Shown piece by piece: positions 3,001-32,693 of a stretch of 64,000 bases of DNA (position 1 is its first letter; the number at the start of each line of letters is the position of its first letter). The stretch comes from Candidatus Saccharimonadota bacterium (GTDB taxonomy: Bacteria > Patescibacteriota > Saccharimonadia > Saccharimonadales > AWTP1-31). Under the pieces are notes generated by a model. The model did not search any database. It was not told the origin of the DNA and saw only the letters and a program-made list of their open reading frames with translations. The stretch covers positions 659-64,658 of the forward strand of contig JBPOHZ010000003.1 of assembly GCA_052034955.1 (NCBI GenBank), written 5' to 3'. Both the position numbers and the translations under genes were made by a program.

Positions 3001-3868
3001 AGCACCAGTACTAGGGGTGATGGTGGCTGCGGTGATGATGAACTTATTATTTGTCTGGTCTAAGAAATACGGCAATAACTTTGCGAACTTTGCCGCCCAA
3101 ATATCCTTATATGCCTTTGGGGCAGTCGGTCTAGCATTGTCTTATTCACTTATGCGACGAGAAGAGATTGCTACTGGTCTTGTTAACCAAGAACTAAGCC
3201 TAGAAAAATCAATTGCTGCCTCGCAGACTAACTTTATCCAATCCAGTGGCGGTCAGTTGGCCGAAGACGTGACGCTTATTCAGTCATCAGTTGCCGCAAT
3301 GAAAGACATACCGGAAGGTCGCCTTTTTGCAAATGGCTTAACTTCACTAGAAAAAGTCGTAAGTAAGTTCTCCTATCTAGACAAGTTGCTCAACACCACA
3401 AACGTCTCCGATGAGCCGATCTCACTTGATATCTCTCTGCAAAGTATCCTCGGTACTTACAAAGAAGCTGCCACGGCTAAGAACATTGATCTGATTGTCC
3501 ACGCCGACAGCGGTCTAGCGGCATGCATTGATGAAGCGGGCTTCCGACAACTCGTGGGCTCGTTACTAGATAATGCCATTAAGTTTACTCCAGAAGGTGG
3601 CGAAGCCAGCTTATCAATCACCAAAAGCAGAAACAACATCACTATTAAGGTAAAAGATAATGGTGTTGGTATTGATCCCACCAGGGCCCAAAAACTTTTC
3701 CAGCCTTTCACAAGAGGGACAGACACAAAAACATTTGATTATGACGGTCTAGGACTAGATCTATATATGGACAGATTGATTGTCGATAGATGGAACGGAA
3801 CAATCAAAGTTTCGTCCAAGGAAAAAGCCGGAACACTAGTGACTGCAACCCTTAGAACCAGCAAGTAA
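2..3868 (+). CDS. Giant ectodomain sensor histidine kinase, 5'-partial (DUF11-like region, five tandem ~100-aa Ig-like repeats, 3 TM helices, HATPase_c)
   Basis: The frame is open from nt 2 with no stop, so the TTG at 86 in the ORF track is not a credible start and the gene runs off the left edge. Tandem repeats span nt 932-2434. TM helices lie at about 2611-2680, 2995-3060 and 3090-3155. ATPase motifs are the N-box LLDNAIKFTPEGG, G1 VKDNGVGI and G2 GLGLDL. Confidence 0.8.
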   Translation, partial: VTIDPDDFYCDGQPHAFAWGSARLSKASLYDFQNYNVRVYDSLGGNLLGSGDIKTNGIGKLDLSDEAFQGQESLYIDVDANVWNSSPWANSGRPYSRVQADAADVQYCYQTRAKTYAEDIACDATSLVTGSDAVFVSDENTYTKEKESSVPYIQLPAKQCFKDLEVSVTSDKSKINNGDQVVYTIAVGNKANKDTHNRGDVGGLHNPKSAVIEATIPSGMQFVSASGGGTLSEDETKVVWQNQAILAAETEQRTVTLRAPGPTARGINKKPVATLAASQETSLNMVASAIYDDDVDQSNNSSQNSQVTFENNLPPVLGELTQSTTSPRDPATLTFTITATDENNLSDIVLLSNNDILGSLQPTANQDEYQISINNVDEGSYDFSVRATDDGTPNLSTTSNVVSLYVAAANTAPGISNLTQTISSPRYPSVLTFTANVADDNSVGVVELRENGQKVADFTETSTPGRYQATVSGYSPGDYDFTVYAEDQDSPKLTTTSSPLRVTMLPNLGPQITGLTQLNSGLESPASLRFRATVTDTDGLASVTLRQGGNNVGTMTPTGTANQFGITLNNYTSGTYEFTVRATDSVSPAATTDSSPLQVVVAPNTPPSVSDLTQTTSSPRAPATLSFNVSASDSNGLTSVKLYSGQTLIGTMNPTSTANKYSLSVANYAAGTYSFSVIAQDANDPAASTQSDSISVTVDAPIVIPDPDPLPANKEPVISDFKQTTDNPVEPGKLNFVAKITDDSVVASVELLVDNELVGVMSATTEQNQYSLTLNDYKAGKYKFKIRTQDNGSPVYTVESETLEVTVGEKPILAAPAGTDQPVEGQGSTQRYTPLAIRKAIPSVLEAAVEKVFQTADSVVKPISPQTAKVLPYTTIFSLGGFAVFYLVLALRQGRSRLRLRQTIKRFQQTEASRKQYIDLISHYINTPITTMQSALELLVSKKSLGESVVTATQRRITRLKEHASALLDTSTSVTEQSSRTALSIDAAGKTNFLKSAGFIAPVLGVMVAAVMMNLLFVWSKKYGNNFANFAAQISLYAFGAVGLALSYSLMRREEIATGLVNQELSLEKSIAASQTNFIQSSGGQLAEDVTLIQSSVAAMKDIPEGRLFANGLTSLEKVVSKFSYLDKLLNTTNVSDEPISLDISLQSILGTYKEAATAKNIDLIVHADSGLAACIDEAGFRQLVGSLLDNAIKFTPEGGEASLSITKSRNNITIKVKDNGVGIDPTRAQKLFQPFTRGTDTKTFDYDGLGLDLYMDRLIVDRWNGTIKVSSKEKAGTLVTATLRTSK

Positions 3869-5817: not shown

Positions 5818-7677
5818 ATGGTTAAATATAAGCATATGATTCCAATTCAGAAACTTGTTAAGAATAAGTTTGTTATTGTCATGGCCTCCTTTGCCGGGCT
5901 CTGTATATTACTCCTTAGTCCAGCCAAAGTGGATGCCGCAACACTTAGTGTAAGTAGTGGGTGTACTCTGTCGGAGTCAATCACAGCTGTTAACAGCGGC
6001 GCAGATGCAGATGGCTGTGTGAAGACTGGTGCGGTCTATGGAACTAACGATACGATCAATATACCAGCAGGTACTATAGCCAGTAGCGACGACCTTCCAA
6101 ATATAACCAAATCGGTTGTAATTGATGGCGCTGGCATAGACCAGACTACTGTCGACATGAACCAGAACGTAGGCTTTGAAGCAATAATCTCAAGTAACAA
6201 AAACACCCACAATCTTACTATTAAAAACCTGGCAATTGTCGATGCCGACACCTTGGCAATTAATGTCGATAGTATACTTACACTTCGCCTAGAAAATATC
6301 GAAGTATCTCAATCCGATAGAGCCATCAGAATCCAGACAACCCAGAACGTAGTTATTAGAAACATTGATGTTCATAACAACCAGGGCGGTACAAGCAGTG
6401 AAAGTGTCGGTGTTATTACCGACCTCGGTACTGCTATTGCTGACAGTACTCCAAATATGGATATTGACGGGGCAAAAATATACGGAAATAGCGGAAATAG
6501 CGTCGGCATTTATGTTTCTCCAAGTTCGTTTAGGGCAGAGAGTAATGACCAGGATCTGCTCGATGACGCTATAGTAAAAATACATAATAGCGTTGTACGA
6601 AACAACCAGGCTCGTTCGTCGGCTGGAATTCTTATTCTTCAAAGCGGTGGTCCTATCTCTCCTACGGCGGTTGATTTGAGCGTTGAGTCGACCACTGTTT
6701 CTAATAATACAGTGGTAGTTACTGACCCCCAAGTGGTGACCGGGTCACAATATCTACCAGTTTTATCAGGATTTATGGTCGCTGGTGTCCTAAAATCGAC
6801 TCAGCACTTCAAGAATGTAACCGTTGCCTACAACACAGTTAATAACCCGGCTCCCGATAATCGGAATTCTGTAGCTGGTTTTCTTGGTTCTCTGGGTGTC
6901 ACTGGAAGCGTGCTGGATATTATTAACACTTCAGTGGTAGCAAATACTGTCACTCAGCCGGCATCAAACATTTCATTGCCAGCGTTCTTTGCTACGAAGA
7001 TCGGACTAGACGACACTTATCAACCCAATGCCGCCGAAGCTGGTTCCACCGCTACCAATGTCTTGGTGTCCCAGAACAAATTCAATGGCCAACCCTATAG
7101 CTGTGCAAATAACATCGATACGTCTTTGTTCCTCGGTATAGATGAAGTTATCGACCTGACCCCTACTAATTTAGGCCACAATATGAGTGACGATAAAAAC
7201 TGTACCGGGTATGCATATGAGACCGGTCTATATAAAACTCTAGAACACCAGGTTAAGGATAACGGTGGTCCGGTGCCCACTATAAAATTACTACCGGGGT
7301 CTCCTGCAATTAATGGAGGTGGTAAAGTTCTTGGCATTAGTACCGATGCCAGAGGCGTGAAGCGAAGTGGCTATTACAGTGTCGGTGCTTACCAGGGCGT
7401 ACTCCTAGCTTCCTCGACTGACAAGGAAGACGGAAGTCTGGCTAAAACCGGAGTTGCTATCGTTTCGTCAGTAGTCTTGGGCGGAATATTACTGCTAGCC
7501 ATGACCTATACTTACATAGATTATCGTCGTCACCGAAAACCTCTGGTCGAGGCCGACCCTTACGCTCGCCAAACATATACCTATCAACACCACATTAGAA
7601 CCGTTACTATACCGCTTCTTCGATATAGAGTGCATATTTCTTTCAGCCCTAGGCCAAAGGGTCTATCCAAGTTCTAG
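5818..7677 (+). CDS. Secreted right-handed beta-helix surface protein (choice-of-anchor-Q-like) with an LPXTG-like LAKTG motif and C-terminal TM
   Basis: Signal peptide ...LLLSPAKVDA. Repetitive N/S/T/V-rich beta-helix-like turns. A GGPVPTIKLLPGSPAINGG motif. LAKTG (nt 7438-7452) is followed by a hydrophobic helix and RRHRK. Confidence 0.7.
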   Translation: MVKYKHMIPIQKLVKNKFVIVMASFAGLCILLLSPAKVDAATLSVSSGCTLSESITAVNSGADADGCVKTGAVYGTNDTINIPAGTIASSDDLPNITKSVVIDGAGIDQTTVDMNQNVGFEAIISSNKNTHNLTIKNLAIVDADTLAINVDSILTLRLENIEVSQSDRAIRIQTTQNVVIRNIDVHNNQGGTSSESVGVITDLGTAIADSTPNMDIDGAKIYGNSGNSVGIYVSPSSFRAESNDQDLLDDAIVKIHNSVVRNNQARSSAGILILQSGGPISPTAVDLSVESTTVSNNTVVVTDPQVVTGSQYLPVLSGFMVAGVLKSTQHFKNVTVAYNTVNNPAPDNRNSVAGFLGSLGVTGSVLDIINTSVVANTVTQPASNISLPAFFATKIGLDDTYQPNAAEAGSTATNVLVSQNKFNGQPYSCANNIDTSLFLGIDEVIDLTPTNLGHNMSDDKNCTGYAYETGLYKTLEHQVKDNGGPVPTIKLLPGSPAINGGGKVLGISTDARGVKRSGYYSVGAYQGVLLASSTDKEDGSLAKTGVAIVSSVVLGGILLLAMTYTYIDYRRHRKPLVEADPYARQTYTYQHHIRTVTIPLLRYRVHISFSPRPKGLSKF

Positions 7678-11614: not shown

Positions 11615-12058
11615 TTAACGGATTATGATGCGTGTAGCGGTCTGGTCCTTATCTTTGCCGGTAGTGATGACCGTTACATTAGAATCTTTTGTGACATCTT
11701 TAAAGCTTAGGCTATCACTGCCTTTTGTGACACGGGTCTTGTCGTTGATAACGATGGTTTTCTCGCTGCCATTGGCTTGCTTGATCTTTATAGACGTATC
11801 GGTAATGTCTACGACTTCACCAAGTACGGTGCTAGGGAACAGCGGGTTATCGGATATTGCGTTTAGGGGGTTGATATAATCTGTTACTTTTTTGACAGCC
11901 AATCTTCCACCTTCGCGCTTACCCATTTGGAATCCAGCGGCATACCCGGCGCCGGCCGATATAGCGACAACTATCAGCACTAAAAGGACGGTCTGAAGTA
12001 AGTCACGACGAATACGTACGCCCCTGTTTGGTTGACTGTCCTGAGTACTAGTTTGCAT
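11615..12058 (-). CDS. Membrane-anchored small protein with a C-terminal beta-rich (DUF5666-like) domain
   Basis: One TM helix (LLVLIVVAISAGAGYAAGF). The internal ATG at 12058 is preceded by GAGGAG. The ORF track extends to 12082. Confidence 0.6.
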   Translation of the reverse strand: MQTSTQDSQPNRGVRIRRDLLQTVLLVLIVVAISAGAGYAAGFQMGKREGGRLAVKKVTDYINPLNAISDNPLFPSTVLGEVVDITDTSIKIKQANGSEKTIVINDKTRVTKGSDSLSFKDVTKDSNVTVITTGKDKDQTATRIIIR

Positions 12059-12148
12059 TTTTTCTCCTCGATGCTTTTTCATATATATTAGTCTTAAATC
12101 AATTGTACCATAAGCGCAATCTTGCTATTGTATAGGTAACTCGAGATT

Positions 12149-15100
12149 ATGAAAAAAGAAGTACTAAAGCAGCTTATTGCCAAACCAACGCGTAGAATTC
12201 GTATTCTGGGCGGAGTATTAGCTGTTTTTGTTTTCACCAGTTTATTCGCCTACTACCTAGGGGTTGTGGCTCCCTCCAGGGCCAATGCATTTACAGGCGG
12301 CGGAGAGGGTACAAGTGCAAACCCGTACTTAGTTAGTACTTGCGACCAGCTACAGTCAATCAGAAATAACAGGTTGGACGCCACTTACGTATTAGTTAAT
12401 GATATTGACTGTGCGGCTACGGTTAACTGGAACGGTGGCCAAGGCTTCAATCCTATTGATGAATTTTACGGAAAATTTGATGGCCGTGGTTATGCTATCT
12501 GGAACCTGGTCATCAACAGGCCAGAAGCAACAAATGTCGGACTTTTTGGATATGTATTAAGGGGTGGTACCCAAATCAGAAACGTATGGTTCGAGAAGAG
12601 CCCACAATTTGCCGATAGAATAGACATAATCGGTAGATCACGTGCTGGTGCTTTGGTTGGAGATTTTAACGGTGCTGTAGTAGCGAATGTTCACAGTAAG
12701 CTGAACATTAGAAGTCGCGCCGTAACTTCCCAGGGTGGTGGCGGGGGTGCAGCGGTTGGAGGATTGATTGGTACCACTAAAACATCACTATTCCATAGCA
12801 GCTCATCGGGGACTATTAGTATTGAATCCAACAACTTGCCCGGTCGAGACATAAATATCGGCGGCTTGATCGGTATCTTTGACGATTATGAAATAAGCGA
12901 CAGGTGGGCAGCTATCTCGGATTCGTACTTCACTGGTAATATTGATATTATTTCGGAAACAACTCCTGCCGTTGGAACCTGTGGTGGCTTGGTCGGAGGT
13001 GCTGGTATATCAAGAGCCAACAATCAAGCAGAGATAATAAACTCATATTCCATAGGCAGAGTAAGCTGCATTAGTCCAACTAACACTATGACGGTAGGAG
13101 GTCTTGCAGGTTATGTTTACTCTGTCGACGACTCAAATCACAGTTTTGTTTTCAAGAATAGCTTTAATGCGGGGCCGGTAATCGCTAATGTGTCCACTGA
13201 CGCTAAAGGATTGTACGGAAGATACTTTCAGGATCCTGATGCCGGTGGTGACGCCGAAACCGACTTCTCGACTAATGTCGTTGACGTTTTTAGGTCTGAT
13301 ACGACCAATTGTGGTAGCTCTAGTGAGGCAGTAAATGACTGCCAGCTAGTAAATGTTAATAACGAACAGCCGGACTTCTTTACATCTAGCAATAGCAGTA
13401 ATAACAGCCTATATAGTCTATGGGATAAGAACCCCAATGGGGATTGGGTTATTGGAGATTCTTTCCCGACACACCAGCCTTGGTCGGTCATGACAAACTA
13501 TCCGACAAATGTTTCTGTCGAGCGTCAGGGAGATGATTTTATAGCTTCTTGGACTAAACCTTCCGGTGACGGCGTAAGAACTAGTGGGATAGTGGATTAT
13601 ACTATTAAGTATCGAGCAAAACAGAGTGTTGGCTGGAGCGATTGGACAAGCGTAGGCGCCGGGGATGTCGATACCTATACACTTAGTGGACTGACGCTAC
13701 CTAATAAGTTCCAGTTTGTGGTATCGGCAAGGATGATATCACCAGAGGTACCAGATCTATATGTAGTTGGCTTACCTTCGTCAACAGTCGAGTTTGCTAG
13801 TGGTATGCCCGATAGCGCACCCAGCAACATAACGATCACTCCATATGCCAAGACAGCAACAGTAGCTTGGGATCCACTGGACTCTGTAACGGTCGAAGAC
13901 GAGGGTGGTTATACGCTTGAGTATAGAAAAGTCGGATCATCTAGTTGGATCATTTCTTCGACAACCAGAAAAACAAGCACCGAGGCTAATCAGCTATTTC
14001 TAGCCGAGCCAACGGCTACAATTATAGACCTGCAACCCCAAGAATCTTATCAAGTTAGAGTCAGAGGAGGCAATAAGGCGGGCAGTGGACCAGTAAGTGA
14101 TCCTGTTTCATTTACCACGCCAGCTCAAGTCAAATACAATGTCAGCACTTGCCAGCAGCTACAAGATATCAAGAATGATCCGCTTGGTTCGTACACCTTA
14201 ACGCAAGATATTAATTGTAGTAACTTCAACTTCCACCCAATTGGCTCAATATTTGATCCTGGTGCAGACGACGCAGTATTTATGGGTGATTTTGATGGCA
14301 ATGGCAAGACGATTGAAAATCTAAGTATCATTGAGGACCTGCCAATTCCTGCTGAAGGCGAAGACACCGGTGGGATAAAAGCTGTGGGAATTTTTGCAGC
14401 AACATACGGTGCAAGTATCAAGAATGTGACAATCAAAGATAGTACTATTGCTGCCAATTATTCTCTGGAAGATAGTGTCGATGAGGACCAGAATGGCTTA
14501 CCTGATGCACCGGACTTCCAGCTAGAAGATATAGACGTACCCCAAGAGGTTCCTGGAAGTGTAGGGGATGCACAGGGCCAAGCAGTTAATACATTTGTAT
14601 CGGCTAGGGATGCACTCAGTGTGGTGTCTCCACAGTTTATATCCGACAGCTATGGGGCGATGGCCAAAGTTGCCGCGGGAGGTGTTATTGGTTTGGCTAT
14701 AGGCCCAGGGACTTATCAGGATATTAGGACAGTAAATACTGCTGTGAGGGGCGGAGAAGCTGCCGGAATAATTGGCGTACTGGTACCAATCTCGCCAGAC
14801 GATCTTCCAAATGTAATACAGAGAGGTGATGCAGAAAGAGGTGAGCCTACTGCTCTCAAGAATTTGCACTCTGACGGATTGGTTATTGGAAATGTTTCGG
14901 GAGGGTTGATTTCGGTAATTGCATCTCCACTTGGTAATGCACTAGGACTGCCAACCAACGTTATTATTCAAGATAGTAGCTCTAGTAGCGAAGTACAGGG
15001 CAATATTGCCGGCGGCCTGGTTGGGGCTGCACTAAATAGCTCAGTACTAAAGACAACCTTCGACTTAATTATTGGTGGCGCAGTTGGCGACATGAACGGT

Positions 15101-18100
15101 GGGGAACTAAAAAACACTATTGTGAACGGAATCAAGTACACCCTCGGGGCTCAGAATATTATAGTCAGAGATTCGGAAAGTTCTGGATTAGTAAGTGCCT
15201 GTGAATCGCTTTCTGGTTTAAGGCTGGCTTCGCTTGGTGGAATTGTAGGAGTTGGTGTTGGCGTTAGGGTTGATAGATCGACAAGTACCTCAGCAATTAC
15301 AAACTGTTCGTCATCGCCATCAGACTGGGGAGTTTATGGCGGATTTATGGGCGGAATTGGCGGAGCGTTAATTGCCTCAAGAGTTACAGATAGTTCTAGC
15401 ACAGGCGATATTACGGCCATTAACGATGATTCCGTAGAGCAAATATCTGTAGTCGATTCATATATCGGTTCGGTAGGTGGAGTCGCAGGACTATTCTTGG
15501 GTGGCGCCGACGATACAGACGGAAAATTTGCCTTAAGCGGAACTCATTCAGAAGGAGACATAACGCTTGATTCTAAGTCTAGCTTTGTAGGTACTAGCGG
15601 AGGCTTGCTAGGAATACTCATCGGAAGTGGCACTATAAAAGATTCATATAGTGAATCAAATATTACGCATAATCTAAAGAACAATCTGATCGGCGGTGTG
15701 TCGGTTGCCGGTGGTCTAACAGGCTTTAGTGTAAGTGGGGATGTCAACTGGATACTAGGCTCGGCATACGGATTCCCACAACTAGGGGATATTACCCATG
15801 GCTTAGTTATTGACGGATCCTACTCCAAGGGCGATGTTAAGGTTAAGAAAGATGGAAGTGGCGGAAGCTTGGCTGTAGGAGGTGGACTCTCTGGATTTAT
15901 GTTTGGCCAAGCTAAGATTACTAATTCATTCGCTACTGGTGATGTGACGGGAGGCTTGCCGGACAGAGTTGTTGCCGAAGGCGATATAGAAAATCCACTG
16001 GGCATACTAACGGGTGGGGGTGCTAAATATGGAGCTGCAGTATCTGGAGGTTTAGTCGGAACAAGCTGGGGCATGGATATACCCCTATTTCTGACACGGA
16101 TGTTGACCGGCATAACGGGCAGTCAGCTCGATAAAGACAGCGGCGGTGGCATAGTTATGGACAATACCTACGCTACTGGTGATGTGGATGGAAATTTAGC
16201 TGGCGGACTTGTTGGCTCGGCCGACATGAAAACCGAGATCAGCAAGTCGTACGCCGAAGGTGATGTAACCGGAGCAATTGTTGGTGGTGTCGTCGGCGAA
16301 ACTGGTGTAGCACAGGCCGTAGTTTCAGGCGCTGGTACAACATTATTTGGTATTGGCGTTTTGGGGTCAGCTAACGCATCCAACGAGAACCAAGTCCAGG
16401 GCGTTCTTGAAGCATCCAAGCTACTAGATACTGCCCAGTTTGCGATTGGCCCATCTGTAATAAATAACACTTATTCAACAGGTAAGGTAACGGCCACACC
16501 CGGGCTGAGTGATACTCGTATTTACGACGCAGGCAGCTTAACACCTGTTGATCCTATAAGGCTGCCATCTACGGCAGGTGGGATCGTGGGGCTTAACTTA
16601 TCCTTTGGAGGCAAGATATTAAACTCTTATGCGTCCGGAGACATTACTGTAAAACCAGATCTACCGACAGAATCAAGAGCTAATCCAACCACTGGACAGA
16701 ATGTCTCTGTCGGTAAGATTCCAAGTGTCGCCGGTGGAATCGTTGGTTTAGATATAGCCTTCCCAGTCCCTAGTATGTTCAAGATTTCAAGCGACACCCT
16801 AGATCCTGAACTTACTCAGCTTAATGCTGGATACTTTGCAGTTGATAATTCCGAACGTCAGATTAAAAATGTCTTTTCTACTTCAAGAATGAACCTCCAA
16901 AGCCAGACAATAACAGGTGGTGCCGTAGGTCTGTTTATCTCGCCTGCTAATTTTGTAGATGCATTTGTAACCGGTATCGAGACCACTCCAGAGGCTCAGG
17001 ATCGAACCTTTAAGACGGCTGGAGTATATCTGGATAAGTCTCGTATATCGGTATCTAATTGCAGTGGTCCTAAAGACACTGCCTTTAAAATTGCCTCTAG
17101 AATATTTGTTGACTCAAAATATAAGGGCTCCGATGGTAGAGATGTATTCGAGATTCCAGATCCTGATAATTCGGGCCAGCAGGTGTCGCTAATCGAAGTA
17201 CTCAAGGATGATCCCGATAAACTTCTTAACCAGCCATTTAATATAGGCCAGGCGCAACAAGAAAATCTTCCAACCGTAGGACAAGTTGTAGATAAAGTCA
17301 ACTCCCTGCTATCTATTCAGACAGCATGTGACTTTGTAAATACTGATGGCACCCAGGATAACTACTTTAAGCAGAACGACACTAACTATCCGATGAAGAA
17401 CTGGGACTTCGATAATGTTTGGAAAGTTAGGGAGAACGATTATCCAAAATTCGTTGCCGGAGCAAGTGTCGATAACGGTGGTAATGGTAACGGCGGTGGA
17501 TCAAGCAGTACAAATACGACCAACCAGTCCGGAAATAAAACAGTTGAGGTAACCGAGCCGAACGAAATCATAAGTAGCTTTGGCCAGGGGATAGCTCGAA
17601 GGGCCGGCTTTAACAGGGATCAAGAACAGGTCAAGGGACTAAAAGCCATCTTGGCAAGGATGCCAGTATTCTTGGCTCGGAGTATCCCTTATACACTAAT
17701 CTTGCTCTTGTTGATCCTGGCCAGCATGTATTCTTTCCAGGCATTGCGCGAGTATCGACAGCTAAGTGTTTACCACAAAAACATACTTAGAATTACCAAT
17801 ACTAAAGCGTCCATCGATAACTACTTGGCTATAACCACGCATTACCTAAACACGCCAGCCGCAATTATGGGTGGAGCTGTAGAACTCCTGACTTCACTCA
17901 AAAAAGTATCTGCAACCAAGGCTAGTTCCCTTGAATCTAAGCTAAAGAAATTTAGTGAAGCAGCTGCTGGACTGTTGACGTCTAACCAGGTTTCCAACGC
18001 CCAGTCAGCTAATGACGAGAAGCTGATTAAGCATGAGCAACCCAGCCCATTCAAGGCCAAAGCTGTTTGGATACCTGCCAGTATCGCCTTTGGACTAATT

Positions 18101-18982
18101 GCTCTGGCCAATGCCCTGTTCATCTACGCCGACGTCTTTAATAGCTCACCGTACCGCATCATGGTTGAGTTTGGTTTGCTGGCATTGGGCGTCTTCTTGG
18201 TCGGTCTAGCATATCGCTACCGAAACTTTATGGCCGCCACCAAAGATATAGCCAGACATCAATTGGCAATGGAATCACAGCTTTATAAAAAGCGAGAGGC
18301 TTTCATACCAGAAGCTATAAAAGTGGTCAGCGATAATTACGATGATATTCAGATAGCAAGCGAGTCACTCAAAAAGACCCCAGAAGCTAAGTTGTTCTTT
18401 AATGGACTAGCTATGTTGGGTGGAATAAAAGACGGATTAATAGGCATCAAGAAGTTTGCTTCATTCGAAGGCGAAGCACCATTGTTTGACGTCACAACTT
18501 ACATCAAAAAGACTATCCATGAGCAGAATACCAAAGCTGCCGACAAGAAGATAACTTTTGACGCCAGTATCGCTAACGGTCTAATCACCAGAATTCAACC
18601 AGAAGCCGTTAAACAGATCGTTGATTCTATCATCGATAACGCAGTCAAATTTGCCAAAGATGGCGGTCACATCGAGGTTCAGGCCTACAAACGATTCAAC
18701 CAATTAGTCTTCTCGGTTAGCGACAACGGAATCGGTATCTCCGAGAACAAGCTTCCAAGCTTGCTCAAGCCGTTCTCTCGTGGAACCGAATCCATGGAGT
18801 ATAACTACGAAGGTCTTGGACTTGGCTTGTACACCGACAAGGTAATAATCGACAAGCTCGGTGGAAAGATTAGTATTAGCAGTAAATTGGGCCAAGGAAC
18901 GGTAGTTACTATTTCATTACCTATGAGCCACGAAGTTAAGGCCTTGGCTCCGGTCCTGATCATGCCTGAAGCCACAGCTTAA
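12149..18982 (+). CDS. Giant (2277 aa) GLUG-repeat/FN3 adhesin-like ectodomain fused to a histidine kinase transmitter
   Basis: N-terminal signal anchor. Two GLUG-type head modules (..CDQLQSIRNN..DIDC..F.GKFDGRGYAIWNL...VGLFG and the second ..CQQLQDIKND..F.GDFDGNGKTIENL). Dozens of GGLVG/GGIVG turns. Two FN3-like domains at about nt 13500-14115. Three TM helices. HATPase_c motifs DNAVKFAKDGG, DNGIGI and GLGLGL. Confidence 0.85.
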   Translation: MKKEVLKQLIAKPTRRIRILGGVLAVFVFTSLFAYYLGVVAPSRANAFTGGGEGTSANPYLVSTCDQLQSIRNNRLDATYVLVNDIDCAATVNWNGGQGFNPIDEFYGKFDGRGYAIWNLVINRPEATNVGLFGYVLRGGTQIRNVWFEKSPQFADRIDIIGRSRAGALVGDFNGAVVANVHSKLNIRSRAVTSQGGGGGAAVGGLIGTTKTSLFHSSSSGTISIESNNLPGRDINIGGLIGIFDDYEISDRWAAISDSYFTGNIDIISETTPAVGTCGGLVGGAGISRANNQAEIINSYSIGRVSCISPTNTMTVGGLAGYVYSVDDSNHSFVFKNSFNAGPVIANVSTDAKGLYGRYFQDPDAGGDAETDFSTNVVDVFRSDTTNCGSSSEAVNDCQLVNVNNEQPDFFTSSNSSNNSLYSLWDKNPNGDWVIGDSFPTHQPWSVMTNYPTNVSVERQGDDFIASWTKPSGDGVRTSGIVDYTIKYRAKQSVGWSDWTSVGAGDVDTYTLSGLTLPNKFQFVVSARMISPEVPDLYVVGLPSSTVEFASGMPDSAPSNITITPYAKTATVAWDPLDSVTVEDEGGYTLEYRKVGSSSWIISSTTRKTSTEANQLFLAEPTATIIDLQPQESYQVRVRGGNKAGSGPVSDPVSFTTPAQVKYNVSTCQQLQDIKNDPLGSYTLTQDINCSNFNFHPIGSIFDPGADDAVFMGDFDGNGKTIENLSIIEDLPIPAEGEDTGGIKAVGIFAATYGASIKNVTIKDSTIAANYSLEDSVDEDQNGLPDAPDFQLEDIDVPQEVPGSVGDAQGQAVNTFVSARDALSVVSPQFISDSYGAMAKVAAGGVIGLAIGPGTYQDIRTVNTAVRGGEAAGIIGVLVPISPDDLPNVIQRGDAERGEPTALKNLHSDGLVIGNVSGGLISVIASPLGNALGLPTNVIIQDSSSSSEVQGNIAGGLVGAALNSSVLKTTFDLIIGGAVGDMNGGELKNTIVNGIKYTLGAQNIIVRDSESSGLVSACESLSGLRLASLGGIVGVGVGVRVDRSTSTSAITNCSSSPSDWGVYGGFMGGIGGALIASRVTDSSSTGDITAINDDSVEQISVVDSYIGSVGGVAGLFLGGADDTDGKFALSGTHSEGDITLDSKSSFVGTSGGLLGILIGSGTIKDSYSESNITHNLKNNLIGGVSVAGGLTGFSVSGDVNWILGSAYGFPQLGDITHGLVIDGSYSKGDVKVKKDGSGGSLAVGGGLSGFMFGQAKITNSFATGDVTGGLPDRVVAEGDIENPLGILTGGGAKYGAAVSGGLVGTSWGMDIPLFLTRMLTGITGSQLDKDSGGGIVMDNTYATGDVDGNLAGGLVGSADMKTEISKSYAEGDVTGAIVGGVVGETGVAQAVVSGAGTTLFGIGVLGSANASNENQVQGVLEASKLLDTAQFAIGPSVINNTYSTGKVTATPGLSDTRIYDAGSLTPVDPIRLPSTAGGIVGLNLSFGGKILNSYASGDITVKPDLPTESRANPTTGQNVSVGKIPSVAGGIVGLDIAFPVPSMFKISSDTLDPELTQLNAGYFAVDNSERQIKNVFSTSRMNLQSQTITGGAVGLFISPANFVDAFVTGIETTPEAQDRTFKTAGVYLDKSRISVSNCSGPKDTAFKIASRIFVDSKYKGSDGRDVFEIPDPDNSGQQVSLIEVLKDDPDKLLNQPFNIGQAQQENLPTVGQVVDKVNSLLSIQTACDFVNTDGTQDNYFKQNDTNYPMKNWDFDNVWKVRENDYPKFVAGASVDNGGNGNGGGSSSTNTTNQSGNKTVEVTEPNEIISSFGQGIARRAGFNRDQEQVKGLKAILARMPVFLARSIPYTLILLLLILASMYSFQALREYRQLSVYHKNILRITNTKASIDNYLAITTHYLNTPAAIMGGAVELLTSLKKVSATKASSLESKLKKFSEAAAGLLTSNQVSNAQSANDEKLIKHEQPSPFKAKAVWIPASIAFGLIALANALFIYADVFNSSPYRIMVEFGLLALGVFLVGLAYRYRNFMAATKDIARHQLAMESQLYKKREAFIPEAIKVVSDNYDDIQIASESLKKTPEAKLFFNGLAMLGGIKDGLIGIKKFASFEGEAPLFDVTTYIKKTIHEQNTKAADKKITFDASIANGLITRIQPEAVKQIVDSIIDNAVKFAKDGGHIEVQAYKRFNQLVFSVSDNGIGISENKLPSLLKPFSRGTESMEYNYEGLGLGLYTDKVIIDKLGGKISISSKLGQGTVVTISLPMSHEVKALAPVLIMPEATA

Positions 18983-23611: not shown

Positions 23612-25243
23612 ATGCGTCGTATAACTCGACATTTATACATCTTATTCATCTTTGCCTTAGCAGCAGTTGGGTTTGGTTTGGTGTCGGCTAGTAAAGCACA
23701 GGCCGCCAGTGGTCCATGCGCCAACACTGAGTTTGGGTACGTTTCCTATAACAATATATCTATGCCTGGCCCGGGCGCTGGCAACTATCGCGTATGGGCA
23801 AGAATCAAGATGCCTACCGGGTCTACCAACAACAACTTCAAACTAGAAGTAGATGGCGCTAACTGTTACACCATGGGAGGAGCATCAGTTCCTTCTAACC
23901 AGTGGACATGGGTAGATTTCGAGACTAACAATGCAAAAGTAACCCTAAACAACTTTGCTGCTGGACCTCATAATTTCCGTGCCGTTGGTACCGGAGAAGG
24001 CCTGCTGTTAGACAGGGTAATCTTTACTCAGGATACGGCCGCTGGCGGCAACTGTGGGCCACCCCAGGGCACTGGTAATGATTGTGCCGATCCACCTGAT
24101 ACTACTCCGCCAGTCATTAATCTAACTGGACCAGCTGCATCACCAGCAACTATCAAAGACACTGTTAATGTAACAGCAACTGCATCAGACAATGGAACTA
24201 TAGCCAAGATTGACTTCTTTGTAGATGGTGTCGACAAGGGTGACTTCCCGTTATCAAGTGGTTCGCCATACTCCTTTAGCTGGAACACTAAGACATCTGG
24301 CGTAAGTGATGGACCACATACAATCAAGGTCAGGGTGACAGATGGTATGGGCCTAACGTCAGAATCTAGCCGAAGCGTAATAGTGGCCAATGGAAAGCCA
24401 GATCTTAGAGTAACGGCGATTGGTAAATCTCCTGCTGTTGTCAACGCTGGTGTGCCGGTAACCTTTAACGCCACGATAAAGAACTATGGCTCAGTTGACT
24501 CGGTGCCTGGCAATGTCGAATTCTCGCTGACTAATTCCCAGGGTAATGTCACTATATTAGGCACCGCTACCAGTTCAAACCAGATAACTGGCGGTGGAAT
24601 CGATACCGAGGTTATTACTTTATCTTCTCCAACCTGGACTTCAGTAGCTGGTTCTTGGACAGTTACCGCCAAAGTAGATAGCGGATCGGCAATTTCCGAA
24701 GCTTACAGTGACATAGATGCCGAAGCAAACAACACATTAACTCAGAACTTTACAGTTGGAGTTGTTGATAATACCGATCCAGTAGTAGACATCACTTATC
24801 CATCCGGAGGTGATACATTAACGGGTAGCAAGACTCTTACAGCTACAGCAACAGATATCGGCGGAACAGGTGTATCATCGGTAGTCTTCTATGATGGAAT
24901 CGCCCAACTTGGTACTGGTGTTAAGACTGGTACAAATTATGGATTGATTTGGGATACAAAAACTACCGGTAATGGAAGTCATGTTATCAAGGCGGTTGCC
25001 ACCGATGCCAAGGGCAATACTAGTGAAGATACTGTGACGATTACCGTCGACAATCAGGTAGTGTCCGCCTCTCCATGGGACATGGATGGTGATAATGACG
25101 TCGACATGAAGGATGTCCTTAAATTCCGAAGAAACTGGCTCAAGTCTCCTGCCACCAGGGAAGAGGGCGATTTCGATGGCAATAATAAGGTGGATCTAAG
25201 AGATTTTCTAAAATTCAATAAGTACTGGACGGGACCAAGATGA
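23612..25243 (+). CDS. Secreted multidomain protein (lectin/CBM-like, Ig-like x2, CARDB-like) ending in a type-I-dockerin-like double EF-hand
   Basis: Signal peptide ..SKAQA. Ig-like modules (DNGTIAKIDFFVDG.., TDIGGTGVSSVVFYDG..). CARDB-like PDLRVTAIG..NAGVPVTFNATIKNYG. C-terminal DMDGDNDVDMKDVLKF...GDFDGNNKVDLRDFLKF (nt 25079-25228). Confidence 0.8.
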   Translation: MRRITRHLYILFIFALAAVGFGLVSASKAQAASGPCANTEFGYVSYNNISMPGPGAGNYRVWARIKMPTGSTNNNFKLEVDGANCYTMGGASVPSNQWTWVDFETNNAKVTLNNFAAGPHNFRAVGTGEGLLLDRVIFTQDTAAGGNCGPPQGTGNDCADPPDTTPPVINLTGPAASPATIKDTVNVTATASDNGTIAKIDFFVDGVDKGDFPLSSGSPYSFSWNTKTSGVSDGPHTIKVRVTDGMGLTSESSRSVIVANGKPDLRVTAIGKSPAVVNAGVPVTFNATIKNYGSVDSVPGNVEFSLTNSQGNVTILGTATSSNQITGGGIDTEVITLSSPTWTSVAGSWTVTAKVDSGSAISEAYSDIDAEANNTLTQNFTVGVVDNTDPVVDITYPSGGDTLTGSKTLTATATDIGGTGVSSVVFYDGIAQLGTGVKTGTNYGLIWDTKTTGNGSHVIKAVATDAKGNTSEDTVTITVDNQVVSASPWDMDGDNDVDMKDVLKFRRNWLKSPATREEGDFDGNNKVDLRDFLKFNKYWTGPR

Positions 25244-26598
25244 AAATAAAAAGTAAGTTTAATCCATTAAAAACCCTAAAACAACTATTAGTAATTGCCG
25301 TAGTTGTTGGACTTACCCTCTCTGTAAAAAGCTCCAGTGCAGCAACTACTGCAACTCTGACCATCGATCCTTCGAGCGGAACAAAAACCAAGGGTTCAAG
25401 CTTTTCGGTAACGGTCTACGAATCAAGTAGTGAGCCGGTCGTTGGAGTTCAGTCTAACTTAACTTATGATGCCAACCAATTGCAGCTAACCATGTTAGAT
25501 ACATCAGTTGGTAAGTTCCCAGAATGCCCTGATACCAATTACGGCGGCGGTGTCGTTACAATCGGTTGCGCAAAACTAAGCGGTACAAACACTGGTAAAG
25601 TAGCTGTTGCACGAATTACCTTTAAGGTATTAGGTAGCTCCGGCAAGACGGCCATAAACTTCTCTTCATCCTCCGAGGTATATGCTAACGATGATAACAA
25701 CACTGACATTTGGAATGGTGATGCTGATGGCGCACTATATACATTAGCCAATATCCCTAGCAGCGGCGGATCAGGTGGCGGAAGCTCATCTGGTGGCGGA
25801 TCATCGAGTAATAGCGGTTCAGGTGGCGGAAGCTCATCTGGCGGCGGATCATCGAGCGGTGGCACCAAGAAATCAACAAGTAAATCATCCACAAAAGATA
25901 ATCAGTCAGACACCTCGGATGTTGTTCCCGAGATAGTCTCGAATGGATCTGTTGAGGTTTATGTTACAGACGCCAATGGCCGTGCGGTGGCTGGTGCCAA
26001 AGTCTTGATAGATCAGAACACCTCTCTTACCGATTCACAGGGAATAGCATCGTTTGCAAGCCTTGCCCCCGGCAAGTACAAAGTAAAGGTAGAGGCTGCC
26101 AATGGTACTGCCAATACCTCGATAACTGTTAGTGGAAATTCTACGGATGTACAAAGGCTTGATGTCAAAATAAAGAAACCAATCAATTTCTTGCTGTACG
26201 CCGGTATAGTCCTAATACTTATCCTAATAGGAGTTCTGTATACATTGCTAAAGCGCTGGAAACAGAAGAAGAACGAGCATTCCCATAGATTCGCAGCCAT
26301 GGATACCAGTCCTGTGGTGACCGACATGTCTCACGGGCCAAAGGCTATCAATGATAGTGCTGCAGCGGTTGTTACTCCTGGTTCAGCCTCAAGAGAGCCA
26401 GAGCCAGAAGAAATAGAACCAAAAGATATGAAACCAGAAGAAATCAAGCCTGTTCCCGAAGAGCCAAAGGAAAAAGAAGATGTTCGTCCTGGCGATACAC
26501 TATCGGAAATCGAACGTAAGGTTGGCGCCAAGAAGGGGGTCCATCACACTGCTGATGCGGCTGACTTTACTCCCAACTTAATAAAGCCCAAAAAATAA
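25240..26598 (+). CDS. Membrane-anchored cohesin-domain protein (cohesin, G/S linker, CarboxypepD_reg-like sandwich, TM, acidic P/E/K tail)
   Basis: The start overlaps the upstream stop (ATGA). Signal peptide. Cohesin-like ATLTIDPSSG..FSVTVY....VVGVQSNLTYDANQLQL...ARITFKVLG. TM helix at about nt 26181-26250. The cytoplasmic tail is EPEPEEIEPKDMKPEEIKPVPEEPKEKE. Confidence 0.8.
   Translation: MKIKSKFNPLKTLKQLLVIAVVVGLTLSVKSSSAATTATLTIDPSSGTKTKGSSFSVTVYESSSEPVVGVQSNLTYDANQLQLTMLDTSVGKFPECPDTNYGGGVVTIGCAKLSGTNTGKVAVARITFKVLGSSGKTAINFSSSSEVYANDDNNTDIWNGDADGALYTLANIPSSGGSGGGSSSGGGSSSNSGSGGGSSSGGGSSSGGTKKSTSKSSTKDNQSDTSDVVPEIVSNGSVEVYVTDANGRAVAGAKVLIDQNTSLTDSQGIASFASLAPGKYKVKVEAANGTANTSITVSGNSTDVQRLDVKIKKPINFLLYAGIVLILILIGVLYTLLKRWKQKKNEHSHRFAAMDTSPVVTDMSHGPKAINDSAAAVVTPGSASREPEPEEIEPKDMKPEEIKPVPEEPKEKEDVRPGDTLSEIERKVGAKKGVHHTADAADFTPNLIKPKK
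25768..25863 (+). repeat. Tandem 48-nt direct repeat (2 copies) encoding the Gly/Ser linker of the cohesin protein
   Basis: Unit 1 is 25768-25815 and unit 2 is 25816-25863. They differ at only a few positions. They encode GSGGGSSSGGGSS(SNS/SGG). Confidence 0.85.
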
Positions 26599-30526: not shown

Positions 30527-31312
30527 ATGTCAGTTGAAATAGCACCAAATACCGCCTTTGTTCTATGTGGATCTTCACTGATGAGAGAGTCTAGCTCCAT
30601 AGAAGGGCTCGATCTCAGTGGAGCATCTTCGCCAACTGTTTTGACTATTCCTACTGCAAAACATACCAAAGAACGTTTCGATGGTCATGTTGAGGCATCA
30701 AAAAAACACTTTGCTAAGTTAGGTGTTGAAGTTTTAAATCTTCATGAATTTGATATACCTCCAAGTCAGCAGGAGATAGATGACAAAGTGGGCAGGGCAG
30801 ATATGATTTGGGTAACAGGCGGTGACACATTAAAAGCTATGGACTTCTGGGATGAGACAGGTATTACCGATGCTGTTATTAAAGCTGCCTCATGGGGGAC
30901 CGTTATGTCTGGTGGAAGCGCCGGTATGTTGGCTTGGATGCAAACGGGTCATAGTGACTGGGAGTCTTTTCGGGCAGCTGGTCCGGAAGATGAATGGGAC
31001 TACCGACCAATTCGAGGCCTTGGACTAATTGCCGCTACTGGTTGCCCTCATTACGAAACAGCAACTGAAGGTGGAGAAATGCGCGAAGCAAGTTTTAAGA
31101 GAATGCTTATGAATGATAACAGTCTGCCAACTCCAGCTATAGGCATTACCAACTCGGCTGCTTTAGCACTTTTCGATGGATACTACAGAGTATTCGAAGC
31201 TCCATACAAAGATGATCCGCCCGTAGAAGTACATGTATTAGGTCGAACAGAGGATGGTTTGAGCGACCGTTTATTGCCTGTTTCGTCAGGCTATCAGCCG
31301 ATAGACTTTTAA
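30527..31312 (+). CDS. Peptidase S51 family protein (dipeptidase E / cyanophycinase-like)
   Basis: GGDTLKAM and the nucleophile motif SGGSAGM. TATAAT at 30513-30518 lies 8 nt upstream of the ATG. Confidence 0.75.
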   Translation: MSVEIAPNTAFVLCGSSLMRESSSIEGLDLSGASSPTVLTIPTAKHTKERFDGHVEASKKHFAKLGVEVLNLHEFDIPPSQQEIDDKVGRADMIWVTGGDTLKAMDFWDETGITDAVIKAASWGTVMSGGSAGMLAWMQTGHSDWESFRAAGPEDEWDYRPIRGLGLIAATGCPHYETATEGGEMREASFKRMLMNDNSLPTPAIGITNSAALALFDGYYRVFEAPYKDDPPVEVHVLGRTEDGLSDRLLPVSSGYQPIDF

Positions 31313-32040: not shown

Positions 32041-32693
32041 TATTCTTTTGCTCCCAGGATTCCCATAGCCACGCAGGCTAATGTCTTCCACTGCTTAAAG
32101 CTTTTTTCCTCACAAGGTAGATCGGCACCTTTTTCGAGATGAAAGAAAGATTTTGCAATTACTTCTGCAGCACCGGCAGGCGTCGCAAGAAGTTCAGCAG
32201 TTTCTGGCGGTACAAGTTTGGTAGTTACCATAGCCAGGTCATTAAATAGATTGGCCGGCGGTATAGATACCACTAGCTCGCCTGCGCAAAACCGGTTAGA
32301 AACGTACTCGGCACAGGCAGTTACAAGTTCGGTAGATTGTAACGATGGTTCATTGACCAAACTTACGGCTCTAAATAAAGAGTCGGCAATATACAGATGA
32401 GACTGATTGGCAGTAAGAACCATGTCGACATCACCATAGGCAAGTGCCATGTCCTGTATTACGTCATCAATCAAGAATAGATCACGCGGAAAATCGGAAT
32501 CATATATCGGGTCCTGGATGTCGCCAAAATCATCGAGGTCAGGGTTATAAGTGTAGCTTTCTTTCACAAAAAAATCCTCCGGTCGCTTGGAACCAAAGGA
32601 TGACGTGAATATGCTTCGCGTATGCCGTGGGTTCGCTATTAGCTCCCTGTGATTCAAGCGACCAAAATACAAATCACAGTTCATTGCTGACAC
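32040..32693 (-). CDS. Hypothetical protein translationally coupled to the GGDEF gene
   Basis: A 217-aa ORF whose stop overlaps the GGDEF start by 1 nt. No motif recognised. Confidence 0.55.
   Translation of the reverse strand: MSAMNCDLYFGRLNHRELIANPRHTRSIFTSSFGSKRPEDFFVKESYTYNPDLDDFGDIQDPIYDSDFPRDLFLIDDVIQDMALAYGDVDMVLTANQSHLYIADSLFRAVSLVNEPSLQSTELVTACAEYVSNRFCAGELVVSIPPANLFNDLAMVTTKLVPPETAELLATPAGAAEVIAKSFFHLEKGADLPCEEKSFKQWKTLACVAMGILGAKE

Follow-up and report, generated by a model that had tools for sequence, protein, structure and literature searches.

The window analyzed here (the whole stretch of DNA, 64 kb) came from a Saccharibacteria (TM7) genome and carried a gene for a giant sensor-kinase-like membrane protein. 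The features of this gene are listed below, together with a paralog and a canonical kinase gene from the same window.

2-3868, + strand: 5'-partial paralog with the same split transmitter and a Big_7/DUF11/Big_13 ectodomain (ORF, Pfam, alignment, hydropathy)
12149-18982, + strand: giant sensor-kinase-like membrane protein gene, 2277 aa (single ORF, ATG start; full-length orthologs)
12206-12274, + strand: first transmembrane helix (TM1) or signal anchor, aa ~20-42 (hydropathy)
12290-13483, + strand: beta-helix module 1, aa ~48-445 (Glug match; head, turn, and cap motifs)
13511-14113, + strand: two FN3 domains, aa ~455-552 and 556-655 (Pfam fn3, two stretches)
14126-17452, + strand: beta-helix module 2, aa 660-1768 (AF2; Glug match; head homology)
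17453-17680, + strand: G/S/N/T-rich linker, aa ~1769-1815, then a conserved juxtamembrane segment, VKGLKAILARMPVFLARSIPY (AF2 confidence; conservation)
17681-17743, + strand: TM2, aa 1845-1865, running on into the H-box helix (hydropathy; AF2)
17744-18013, + strand: DHp1, His-bearing helical hairpin, aa 1866-1955 (family profile versus HK853 DHp)
17840-17857, + strand: H-box starting at H1898, HYLNTP (codons checked)
18062-18220, + strand: TM3-TM4 hairpin with a short outside loop, aa 1972-2024 (hydropathy; AF2; family alignment)
18221-18478, + strand: DHp2, DHp-like hairpin without His, aa 2025-2110 (Foldseek; profile versus WalK)
18491-18934, + strand: CA (HATPase_c) ATP-binding domain, aa ~2115-2262 (Pfam; box conservation)
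44871-46547: canonical PAS-HisKA kinase

Further large surface proteins were clustered close to the 12149-18982 gene. The reading frame of this gene was unbroken over all 2277 codons in the ORF listing, and a protein identical to its product was already present in NCBI (P0104). Collinear full-length orthologs of 2121 to 2278 aa were found in at least eight species-level Saccharibacteria genomes (35 to 54% identity along the whole length in eight genomes), and another 18 metagenome clusters (2119 to 2281 aa) were also full length. The orthologs shared the gene order MurJ-LepA-unk155-HK-AhpC-Gmk-HrcA-GrpE. The first-pass annotation had described an ectodomain fused to a kinase in one continuous ORF; the orthologs bore this out, with no frameshift between the two parts.

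The positions of TM1 and TM2 in the hydropathy profile left about 1800 residues between them, and the sequence identified this span as the predicted extracellular part. All 12 Cys residues of the protein were located in this ectodomain. Directly after TM1 was a conserved P-S-x-A-x-A|F motif (aa 42-48; ortholog consensus VVSPSxAxAFSG), which is a possible signal peptidase site at which the protein may be cleaved. The order of the ectodomain was evident from the sequence: a right-handed beta-helix of the GLUG/M26_N type, a pair of FN3 domains, another, far longer beta-helix, and a flexible low-complexity tether. Pfam Glug scored above its cutoff in both helical modules (25.5 bits for residues 44-460 and 28.2 bits for residues 1185-1800), and Pfam fn3 scored 63.7 bits on the two stretches of the FN3 segment. 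Module 1 contained 4 GG[LIVF]xG turns and module 2 contained 13, for a total of 17. Both modules contained the head motif PY..ST..QL ... DIDC/DINC ... F.G.FDG.G (residues 59-114 and 663-719) and a W..W...[YF]P cap motif (W..W..FP in module 1 and WDFDNVW...YPKF in module 2), and an alignment of the two heads over 73 aa (42% identity; E 2e-9) showed them to be homologous. The two GLUG-type modules, glycine-rich turns, FN3 pair, and extracellular span of the first-pass annotation were all recovered.

The AF2 model of module 2 (pLDDT 73, pTM 0.76) contained 87 short strands. Among PDB folds, it was closest to 3n6z and the IgA1-protease N-terminal beta-helix; pertactin, Ag43, and tailspikes ranked next. 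Confidence was low for the linker (model residues 1093-1141, pLDDT <50). The modules also aligned with about 100 non-kinase GLUG/M26_N proteins, at residues 50-350 and 650-750; most of these proteins matched the module 1 region. The Glug matches, identical head and cap motifs, and best fold matches placed the ectodomain close to GLUG/Peptidase_M26_N surface proteins such as the N-terminal domain of the S. pneumoniae and G. haemolysans IgA1 proteases and BACOVA_03286 (PDB 3n6z). Unlike these proteins, the 2277-aa protein lacked an M26 metalloprotease domain and HExxH, had transmembrane helices and a kinase fusion instead of LPXTG, T9SS, or PGF-CTERM anchors, and had a module 2 that was mostly lineage specific at residues 800-1700.

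The C-terminal module consisted of TM2, the His-bearing DHp1, TM3-TM4, the His-less DHp2, and HATPase_c, and the AF2 helices agreed with this layout; one single helix spanned module residues 40-99 (TM2 and the H-box helix). The DHp1 family profile matched the HK853 DHp (E 4.4e-6), with H1898 aligned on the H-box His. The DHp2 profile matched the WalK DHp (E 3e-3), with a non-His residue in the His column; this residue was K2058 in the 2277-aa protein, and the column was variable across the family. Hydropathy limited TM3 to residues 1972-1997 and TM4 to residues 2002-2023, and the hairpin carried a conserved P1976 and polar residues at 1988 (N/D) and 2007 (Q/E/H). Because H1898 was 35 residues past TM2 and the DHp2 His equivalent was 36 residues past TM4, the two DHp hairpins lay equally deep under the membrane. 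About 250 residues, including DHp2, separated the His-bearing hairpin from the ATPase.

Pfam HATPase_c matched residues 2151-2260 with 82.7 bits (cutoff, 26.4), and the N (N2164), G1 (D2192, G2194, and G2196), F (F2209), and G2 (G2222 and G2224) boxes were intact, so the catalytic residues on which the first-pass reading depended were in place. In Foldseek searches, about 235 columns of the model matched DHp+CA chains of ~237 residues from HK853, ZraS, and WalK (E ~1e-11), as well as those of DivL and RetS; from this length, we read the matched region as DHp2+CA. The second-best match was BceS (8g3a_D; transmembrane hairpin, DHp, and CA) over 318 columns. Pfam HisKA gave no match over the H-box region, even at E<=1, and the residue at H+1 was Tyr rather than Glu or Asp. 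The results supported the histidine-kinase reading of the C-terminal module, albeit with a noncanonical transmitter: the fusion of the ectodomain to a kinase ATPase domain in the first-pass annotation held up, but the transmitter was not an ordinary DHp-CA unit.

Conservation in an alignment of 168 family sequences pointed to the same residues. H1898 was conserved in 162 of the 168 sequences (96%), T1902 in 93%, P1903 in 95%, and the Tyr at H+1 in 93%; in the ATP site, N2164 and G2194 were conserved in 100% and D2192 in 97%. The H-box and ATP-site residues were among the most conserved columns, and H1898 equaled the ATP-binding residues. Where divergence was very high (23 members; mean column identity, 16%), the H-box His, Thr, and Pro and residues of the ATP site stayed invariant, and no other column did.

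The protein shared several features with canonical HisKA sensor kinases (HK853, EnvZ, WalK/YycG, and PhoQ): TM1, an extracytoplasmic sensor, and TM2; an H-box His with Thr at +4 and Pro at +5 in a profile that aligned to the HK853 DHp; the N, G1, F, and G2 boxes; and the DHp+CA structural match. It differed from them in that CA was attached to a hairpin other than the one with the His, a two-helix membrane hairpin and a His-less DHp were inserted between the His hairpin and CA, the H-box with Tyr at H+1 was unscored by Pfam HisKA, the sensor was a beta-helix/FN3 fiber of about 1800 aa, and no regulator was adjacent. In CheA, the phospho-accepting His is on a separate helical unit (P1), and CA (P4) is carried by a His-less, DHp-homologous dimerization domain (P3). 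The separation of the His unit from the CA-bearing domain may therefore be functionally analogous. However, the His unit was a HisKA-like H-box hairpin rather than an HPt four-helix P1, the two units were joined through the membrane, and P2, P5, and chemoreceptor coupling were lacking; the protein is not a member of the CheA family. The layout of TM3, short loop, TM4, DHp2, and CA resembled that of BceS/LiaS-type intramembrane-sensing kinases, but DHp2 had no His, no BceAB-type transporter was adjacent to the gene, and an extra unit (anchor, ectodomain, TM2, and DHp1) was located upfront. In DivL, a Tyr replaces the phospho-acceptor His, and the DHp2 of our protein likewise lacked this His; unlike DivL and RetS, the 2277-aa protein still had a highly conserved His on a separate hairpin, as well as an intact ATP site. 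Bacteroides hybrid two-component sensors wire large periplasmic beta-propeller/Y_Y_Y domains directly to a kinase. The 2277-aa protein similarly coupled a kinase to an extracytoplasmic domain that is very large, built from repeats, and of the polymer-binding kind, and some family members carried NHL propellers, but the cytoplasmic part of the Bacteroides sensors is a canonical HisKA-HATPase-REC-HTH unit, their sensor fold is different, and they belong to another phylum.

Sequence and model together suggested that this is probably a real, conserved cell-surface receptor gene of a histidine-kinase-type family specific to Saccharibacteria, a judgment that includes the following mechanism. The TM3-TM4 hairpin brings the chain back to the cytoplasm, and the CA domain, carried on the DHp2 scaffold, would, judging from geometry, phosphorylate H1898 of the neighboring DHp1. 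The phosphoryl group would then pass to a response regulator encoded elsewhere. The input would be an extracellular polymer or the surface of another cell that binds to, or pulls on, the fiber. Because a disordered tether joins the fiber to TM2, a rigid piston seemed less likely as the signal than tension or clustering that affects TM2 and DHp1.

A less likely alternative was a phosphatase-biased or pseudokinase signaling protein whose CA domain binds nucleotide as a regulatory cofactor, without autophosphorylation. DHp1 would then be mainly a docking, phosphatase, or phosphotransfer site for a regulator phosphorylated by another kinase, such as the PAS-HisKA kinase at 44871-46547. For autokinase activity, HisKA kinases, HK853 among them, specifically need the acidic residue at H+1; their phosphatase residue is the Thr at H+4 (PMC3510030). 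The H-box of our protein had Tyr in place of the former and retained the latter. DivL and RetS function without normal autophosphorylation, and both were among the structural matches; the CA-adjoining DHp lacked a His; and regulator linkage was absent, with no receiver domain encoded in the 64-kb window and one at only 1 of 30 related loci. However, the ATP-binding boxes were as tightly conserved as the H-box His, which is unusual in pseudokinases, and HisKA_2 and HisKA_3 kinases also lack Glu at H+1, yet are active.

It was less probable still that the protein is above all a surface fiber, either an adhesin or enzyme bearing, for which the C-terminal module is no more than a membrane anchor, or that the module works inside out, with cytoplasmic ATP use controlling the fiber instead of reporting its state. 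Elsewhere, GLUG/M26_N beta-helix proteins carry no kinase and are surface located or secreted, with anchors of the T9SS, PGF-CTERM, or autotransporter type; glycan-degrading enzymes are common among right-handed beta-helices, and the neighborhood holds other large surface proteins. However, matches of the module 2 model to lyases and hydrolases were insignificant (E >0.7), and a motif scan of the ectodomain found no HExxH or other recognizable catalytic motif. Moreover, an invariant H-box and ATP site would be superfluous in a plain anchor, and the transmitter also occurred with tiny or no ectodomains (clusters of ~500 to 650 aa, and a 502-aa version without an ectodomain at the syntenic locus in L009), indicating that the module functions in its own right. 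An artifactual fusion of an adhesin gene and a kinase gene by frameshift, misassembly, or a chimeric contig had practically no chance of being correct and was rejected, because collinear full-length orthologs in eight independent genomes and 18 metagenome clusters leave no room for an assembly accident, the synteny was conserved, more than 100 clusters showed the same architecture with other ectodomains, and nothing in the ORF, orthologs, or synteny supported it.

The split module defined a large family. The number of 50%-identity clusters in it was at least 150 and may be as high as about 1359; the larger figure counts clusters with E<=1e-30, and the best 150 of the 1359 all spanned the whole split module, with lengths from 179 aa (the shortest were fragments) to 4413 aa. 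A pattern-based genome scan found the family almost confined to Saccharibacteria. NHL, fn3, GLUG/M26_N, DUF11, DUF285, and Big_7 domains were among the ectodomains of 23 sampled members. The partial paralog at 2-3868 shared its transmitter with the 12149-18982 gene (28% identity over 428 aa; E 5e-55) and had an unrelated ectodomain, as the first-pass annotation had stated, and orthologs of both genes co-occurred by genome (L019 with L002 and L018 with L007). As judged from these sequences, ectodomains are swapped between members on one transmitter, which may carry GLUG modules, NHL propellers, Big_7, DUF285, or none; the survey of related genomes and clusters thus agreed with the swapping suggested earlier. 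We found no account of the split-module family in the literature collection searched, in which the fiber-bearing split-kinase family is undescribed. Host-contact or mechanical sensing by the fiber-kinase is plausible, and the split-module family may be how tiny Saccharibacteria sense their surroundings or hosts.

The gene at 12149-18982 on the forward strand was a single uninterrupted ORF in the ORF listing, and hydropathy analysis of its 2277-aa product revealed four hydrophobic helices (TM1 to TM4). Given the positions of TM1 and TM2, about 1,800 residues lie between the first two helices, and we refer to this stretch as the ectodomain. Pfam searches located a HATPase_c domain (CA) at the C terminus, two fn3 domains, and Glug matches that exceeded the threshold in each half of the ectodomain. 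The membrane helices and cytoplasmic parts of the protein were as follows:

Residues ~20-42: TM1
Residues ~1845-1865: TM2
Residues 1866-1955: DHp1, a hairpin bearing His1898
Residues 1972-1997: TM3
Residues 2002-2023: TM4
Residues 2025-2110: DHp2, a hairpin with Lys2058 at the His position
Residues 2151-2260: CA

We used a C-terminal-module profile to scan one genome per GTDB species. About 30 loci matched the whole module; most were labeled Candidatus Saccharibacteria or Saccharimonadales, one was labeled Acidobacteriota, and the labels of five were generic (bacterium, Patescibacteria group). In other phyla, ordinary kinases matched the ATPase part only. Eight of the ~30 loci carried an ORF of 2121 to 2278 aa that aligned end to end with the window protein at 35 to 54% identity, and the orthologue loci and the window had the gene order MurJ-LepA-small membrane protein-HK-AhpC-Gmk-HrcA-GrpE in common. 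The protein database already held an identical protein (P0104, an unnamed NCBI entry) and 18 further full-length clusters of 2119 to 2281 aa, and the only name seen among these full-length relatives was "ATP-binding protein [Candidatus Saccharibacteria bacterium]". The full-length orthologues, the shared neighborhood, and the identical NCBI entry therefore excluded a frameshift, misassembly, or chimeric assembly and indicated that the whole architecture is under selection. Thus, the fusion of ectodomain and kinase in one ORF, which the first-pass annotation had proposed subject to a sequencing error or frameshift, was borne out by collinear orthologues that were full length at all 8 loci and in all 18 clusters. 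The orthologue comparison also showed a conserved P-S-x-A-x-A|F motif after TM1, which makes cleavage of the N-terminal anchor possible as judged from sequence. Promoter and terminator scans gave no more hits than shuffled sequence did. A 155-aa single-pass membrane protein (11615-12082, reverse strand) is transcribed divergently from the kinase gene; it keeps its position in eight related loci (L001-L003, L005-L008, and L013), and L009, whose kinase is without an ectodomain, lacks it.

The HATPase_c match (PF02518) scored 82.7 bits against a cut-off of 26.4. We aligned members of the family, that is, proteins sharing the C-terminal module, first with 31 and then with 168 sequences. In the larger alignment, the N, G1 (DxGxG), F, and G2 (GxGL) boxes were all retained: N2164 and G2194 were invariant (168 of 168), and D2192 (163), G2196 (162), F2209 (153), G2222 (162), and G2224 (167) were conserved in 91 to 99% of the sequences. 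A degenerate ATPase, the loss that would have undermined the earlier reading, was rejected because every ATP-binding box was conserved.

In the family alignment, an H-box of the form HY[LIM]xTP sat 35 residues past TM2. Its His (H1898) was conserved in 162 of the 168 sequences (96%), and it was followed by Tyr rather than an acidic residue at H+1 in 156 (93%), by the Thr of the Thr/Asn position at H+4 in 156 (93%), and by Pro at H+5 in 95%. The TM3-TM4 hairpin that comes after this first hairpin had a conserved Pro as well as polar N/D and Q/E/H residues. In the second hairpin, the His-equivalent column lay 36 residues past TM4 and was variable (K/E/A/Q/S/G); the spacing from the membrane was thus equal for the His and the pseudo-His position. 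Pfam HisKA (PF00512) gave no hit in the window protein at an E-value of ≤0.01, nor at ≤1 on the segment. The paralogue, a 5'-partial gene at 2-3868 on the forward strand, had a weak HisKA match (20 bits against a cut-off of 26.9), which was positioned just after TM2 and not beside the ATPase.

An AlphaFold2 model of the module (pLDDT 73, pTM 0.62) showed TM2 as one helix running through to the H-box, followed by a helix-turn-helix, TM3, TM4 running into a second long hairpin, and an alpha/beta CA. Foldseek aligned about 235 columns of this model with the ~237-residue DHp-plus-CA chains of HK853, ZraS, WalK, DivL, and RetS (E ~1e-11). The near-gapless length of these matches, which were reported without query coordinates, suggested that the matched region was the second hairpin plus CA. 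BceS, membrane hairpin included, aligned over 318 columns. A profile of the first hairpin matched the HK853 DHp at an E-value of 4.4e-6, with the family His falling on the HK853 H-box His, and a profile of the second hairpin matched the WalK DHp at 3e-3, with no His at the His column. The conservation of H1898, the HK853 match, and the modeled helix-turn-helix placed a phospho-acceptor-type His in an H-box on a DHp-type hairpin. This hairpin was not directly N-terminal to CA, as TM3, TM4, and the His-less DHp2 intervene. From the alignments, the AlphaFold2 model, Foldseek, and the DHp profiles, we therefore concluded that there are two DHp-like hairpins, one that has the His and is off CA and one that is on CA and has lost the His, with an out-and-back pass through the membrane between them. 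We call this arrangement (TM2-DHp1-TM3-TM4-DHp2-CA) the split module. The membrane histidine kinase of the first-pass annotation thus stood with respect to its intact HATPase_c domain and conserved H-box His, but its transmitter was not canonical. The two hairpins matched each other in register and weakly in a profile-profile comparison (E 0.0026, probability 12%); therefore, an internal duplication was only suggested by the sequences. Mean-field DCA for DHp1-DHp2 and DHp1-CA contacts (168 sequences, Meff 147) returned gap or indel blocks as top pairs and did not recover its internal controls.

The window protein is neither a CheA nor a BceS-type kinase nor an M26 protease; with each of these it shares just one feature. 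Its ATPase domain and H-box group it with the HisKA-type kinases, but three of their usual features are missing: a match to Pfam HisKA, acidity at H+1, and a His-bearing DHp beside CA. In CheA, the His is on an HPt (P1) four-helix domain accompanied by P2, P3, P4, and P5, whereas here it is on a HisKA-like H-box hairpin, and our Pfam searches hit no CheA-specific families. The sole principle shared with CheA is that the His and dimerization domains are separate, with a His-less dimerization domain next to CA. The TM3-TM4-DHp2-CA layout is like that of BceS-type kinases, but here DHp2 is without a His and there is no adjacent ABC transporter (BceAB in the BceS type). An M26 IgA1 metalloprotease function was ruled out because the 2277-aa protein had neither an HExxH motif anywhere nor a peptidase-domain Pfam hit.

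Glug scored 22.2 bits on the whole protein, 25.5 on the first GLUG-type beta-helix (module 1), and 28.2 on the second (module 2), against a Pfam cut-off of 20.5; fn3 (PF00041) covered two stretches, and its scores of 54.6 bits (whole protein) and 63.7 bits (segment) were both above the cut-off of 25. Motif counts gave 17 GG[LIVF]xG turns and two each of the head and cap motifs, and the module heads were homologous to each other (42% identity over 73 aa, E 2e-9). The two GLUG heads, GGxxG-type turns, and two FN3 domains read earlier from the sequence were therefore all present. All 12 cysteines of the protein were within the ectodomain. The ectodomain also matched about 100 giant non-kinase surface proteins that combine Peptidase_M26_N with Glug and in many cases have T9SS or PGF-CTERM anchors; the regions to which they chiefly aligned were residues 50-350 and 650-750. 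For residues 660-1800, we built an AlphaFold2 model from 19 orthologues (pLDDT 73, pTM 0.76), which contained 87 short strands and a few inserted helices. Its best PDB matches by Foldseek were 3n6z (BACOVA_03286, "putative IgA1 protease", E 6e-4), 7uvl, 7uvk, 6xjb, and 6xja, and those below 3n6z included the N-terminal beta-helix of streptococcal and Gemella IgA1 proteases; pertactin, Ag43, tailspikes, and pectate lyases ranked lower with insignificant E-values. This moderate-confidence model points to a right-handed parallel beta-helix like the N-terminal region of IgA1 proteases. The last ~50 residues of the model were low-complexity G/S/N/T sequence of very low confidence, after which comes a conserved juxtamembrane segment. 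Together, the Glug and fn3 hits, the model, and the low-confidence stretch indicated that the order of the outside part is beta-helix 1, FN3-FN3, long beta-helix 2, flexible tether, and TM2.

The paralogue had its C-terminal ~420 residues in common with the window protein (28% identity, E 5e-55), and its ectodomain consisted of Big_7, DUF11, and Big_13 domains, in agreement with the earlier proposal of a second such architecture with an unrelated ectodomain. We searched the family profile exhaustively against 1.84 billion cluster representatives and found 1359 clusters at an E-value of ≤1e-30. The best 150 of these 1359 clusters all spanned the complete split module and were 179 to 4413 aa long, with fragments at the short end, and nearly all had the HYxxTP box ~370 residues from the C terminus. 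Among 23 divergent long members (mean column identity 16%), invariance was limited to ATP-site residues and to the His, Thr, and Pro of the H-box, and Pfam found NHL propellers in 11, fn3 in 11 or 12, GLUG/M26_N in 5 or 6, DUF11 in 5, DUF285 in 4, and Big_7 in 2. Short members had ectodomains of ~200 aa or none. At L009 (9815-11323), a 502-aa version with no ectodomain occupied the locus where relatives carry a 2200-aa gene. With these varied ectodomains and the short L009 version, the swapping on a constant transmitter for which a survey of related genomes had been advised was clearly seen. In P0006, a related metagenome cluster, Tyr replaces the H-box His, so fibre loss and His loss both occur in nature. 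Four further relatives (P0129, L026, P0268, and P0286) had GLUG turns in other layouts at 2345 to 4413 aa, with 12 GGxxG turns in the 4413-aa P0286; therefore, a GLUG-type fibre is joined to the transmitter in several distinct forms. A word-indexed homologue search with the family profile was dominated by generic kinases, yielding just 10 hits and no useful taxonomy. Automated annotation had already named relatives "ATP-binding protein" or "sensor histidine kinase", so the sequences themselves are not new. Our literature searches found no published description of the split transmitter, a GLUG-kinase fusion, Saccharibacteria or Patescibacteria kinases, or tandem or pseudo-DHp domains.

Neither Pfam, run on essentially every ORF of 120 aa or more, nor tblastn with CheY, PhoB, Spo0F, and NarL found a receiver domain in the 64-kb window. 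The same four receivers detected a receiver gene near 1 of 30 related loci (L029, 3 kb upstream). With three kinase genes and zero receivers in the window, this lineage seems to keep its two-component genes unlinked. The kinases and other genes that we noted were as follows:

2-3868 (+) and 12149-18982 (+): split-type histidine kinases
44871-46547: canonical PAS-HisKA-HATPase histidine kinase
5818-7677 (+): 619 aa, signal peptide, PbH1-like repetitive beta-helix-looking sequence, C-terminal TM anchor, no Pfam hit
23612-26598 (+): two adjacent genes, a Big_7/CARDB/dockerin protein and then a cohesin/CarboxypepD_reg protein
31309-32091 (-): GGDEF diguanylate-cyclase domain protein with a ~95-aa N-terminal region that is not a receiver domain
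32040-32693: ORF upstream of and overlapping the GGDEF gene, no family match
32810-35902 (-): 1030 aa, VWA, SpaA-type prealbumin-fold domains, DUF7507, DUF11
36015-37535 (-): 506-aa fusion of an N-terminal HTH_3 (Cro/C1-type) and an EPSP_synthase/MurA-family enzyme domain, an unusual combination

In L011, L016, and L019, a homologue of the 619-aa protein lies a short distance downstream of a family kinase, and in L019 the homologue comes after FtsH, as in the window; this protein may be a recurrent neighbor of the Big_7-type paralogue. The pair at 23612-26598 looks like a cohesin-dockerin surface assembly in a Saccharibacterium, and the 1030-aa product resembles surface proteins of the pilus-tip or adhesin-like type.

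The mechanism that we propose is framed by what was shown here: topology, fold classes, the conservation of a HisKA-like His and a complete ATP site, and the equal membrane spacing of the His and pseudo-His positions. CA, on its His-less DHp2 scaffold, would phosphorylate His1898 of the adjacent DHp1, and the phosphoryl group would pass on to an unlinked regulator. Fibre input would go straight to DHp1 via TM2, and because the fibre is attached via a disordered tether, the signal would more naturally be tension or clustering than a rigid conformational relay. The idea that this fibre kinase is a host-contact or mechanical sensor is a reasonable hypothesis. The main caveat to the kinase mechanism is the Tyr at H+1. 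In CrdS, two CrdS homologues, and HK853, it is specifically kinase activity that requires an acidic H+1, and phosphatase activity requires Thr/Asn at H+4 (PMC3510030). Given these residue roles, a phosphatase-biased or pseudokinase role is a serious rival, if a rather unlikely one. We also considered a form of the kinase mechanism in which the tandem [TM-DHp] units build a single-chain, pseudo-dimeric four-helix bundle from the His of DHp1 and the CA of DHp2. Such a kinase would be obligately asymmetric and possibly monomeric, with its His helix mechanically continuous with TM2. Since the fibre reaches TM2 via a floppy tether, tension or clustering would gate this kinase as the fibre takes hold of the wall of a host cell. 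We regard this form as speculative and improbable.

The genomes of Saccharibacteria and other Patescibacteria are ~1 Mb in size. Where cultured, these bacteria live attached to host bacteria, and the host-recognition literature that we found concerns type IV pili. Here, ~6.8 kb of genome is devoted to one fibre wired to a kinase module, and elsewhere in the phylum the split module recurs with many further giant ectodomains, which provides concrete, genetically tractable candidate surface sensors. We found no arrangement like it (a His hairpin, a membrane hairpin, and a His-less DHp-CA, with a near-invariant Tyr at H+1) among described kinase architectures, and it would test the rules on how CA reaches the His and which residues autophosphorylation needs. 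If the single-chain, tension-gated form were true, these proteins would be the bacterial equivalent of mechanosensing by adhesion receptors, and swapping of ectodomains would have diversified them across Saccharibacteria to suit different hosts.
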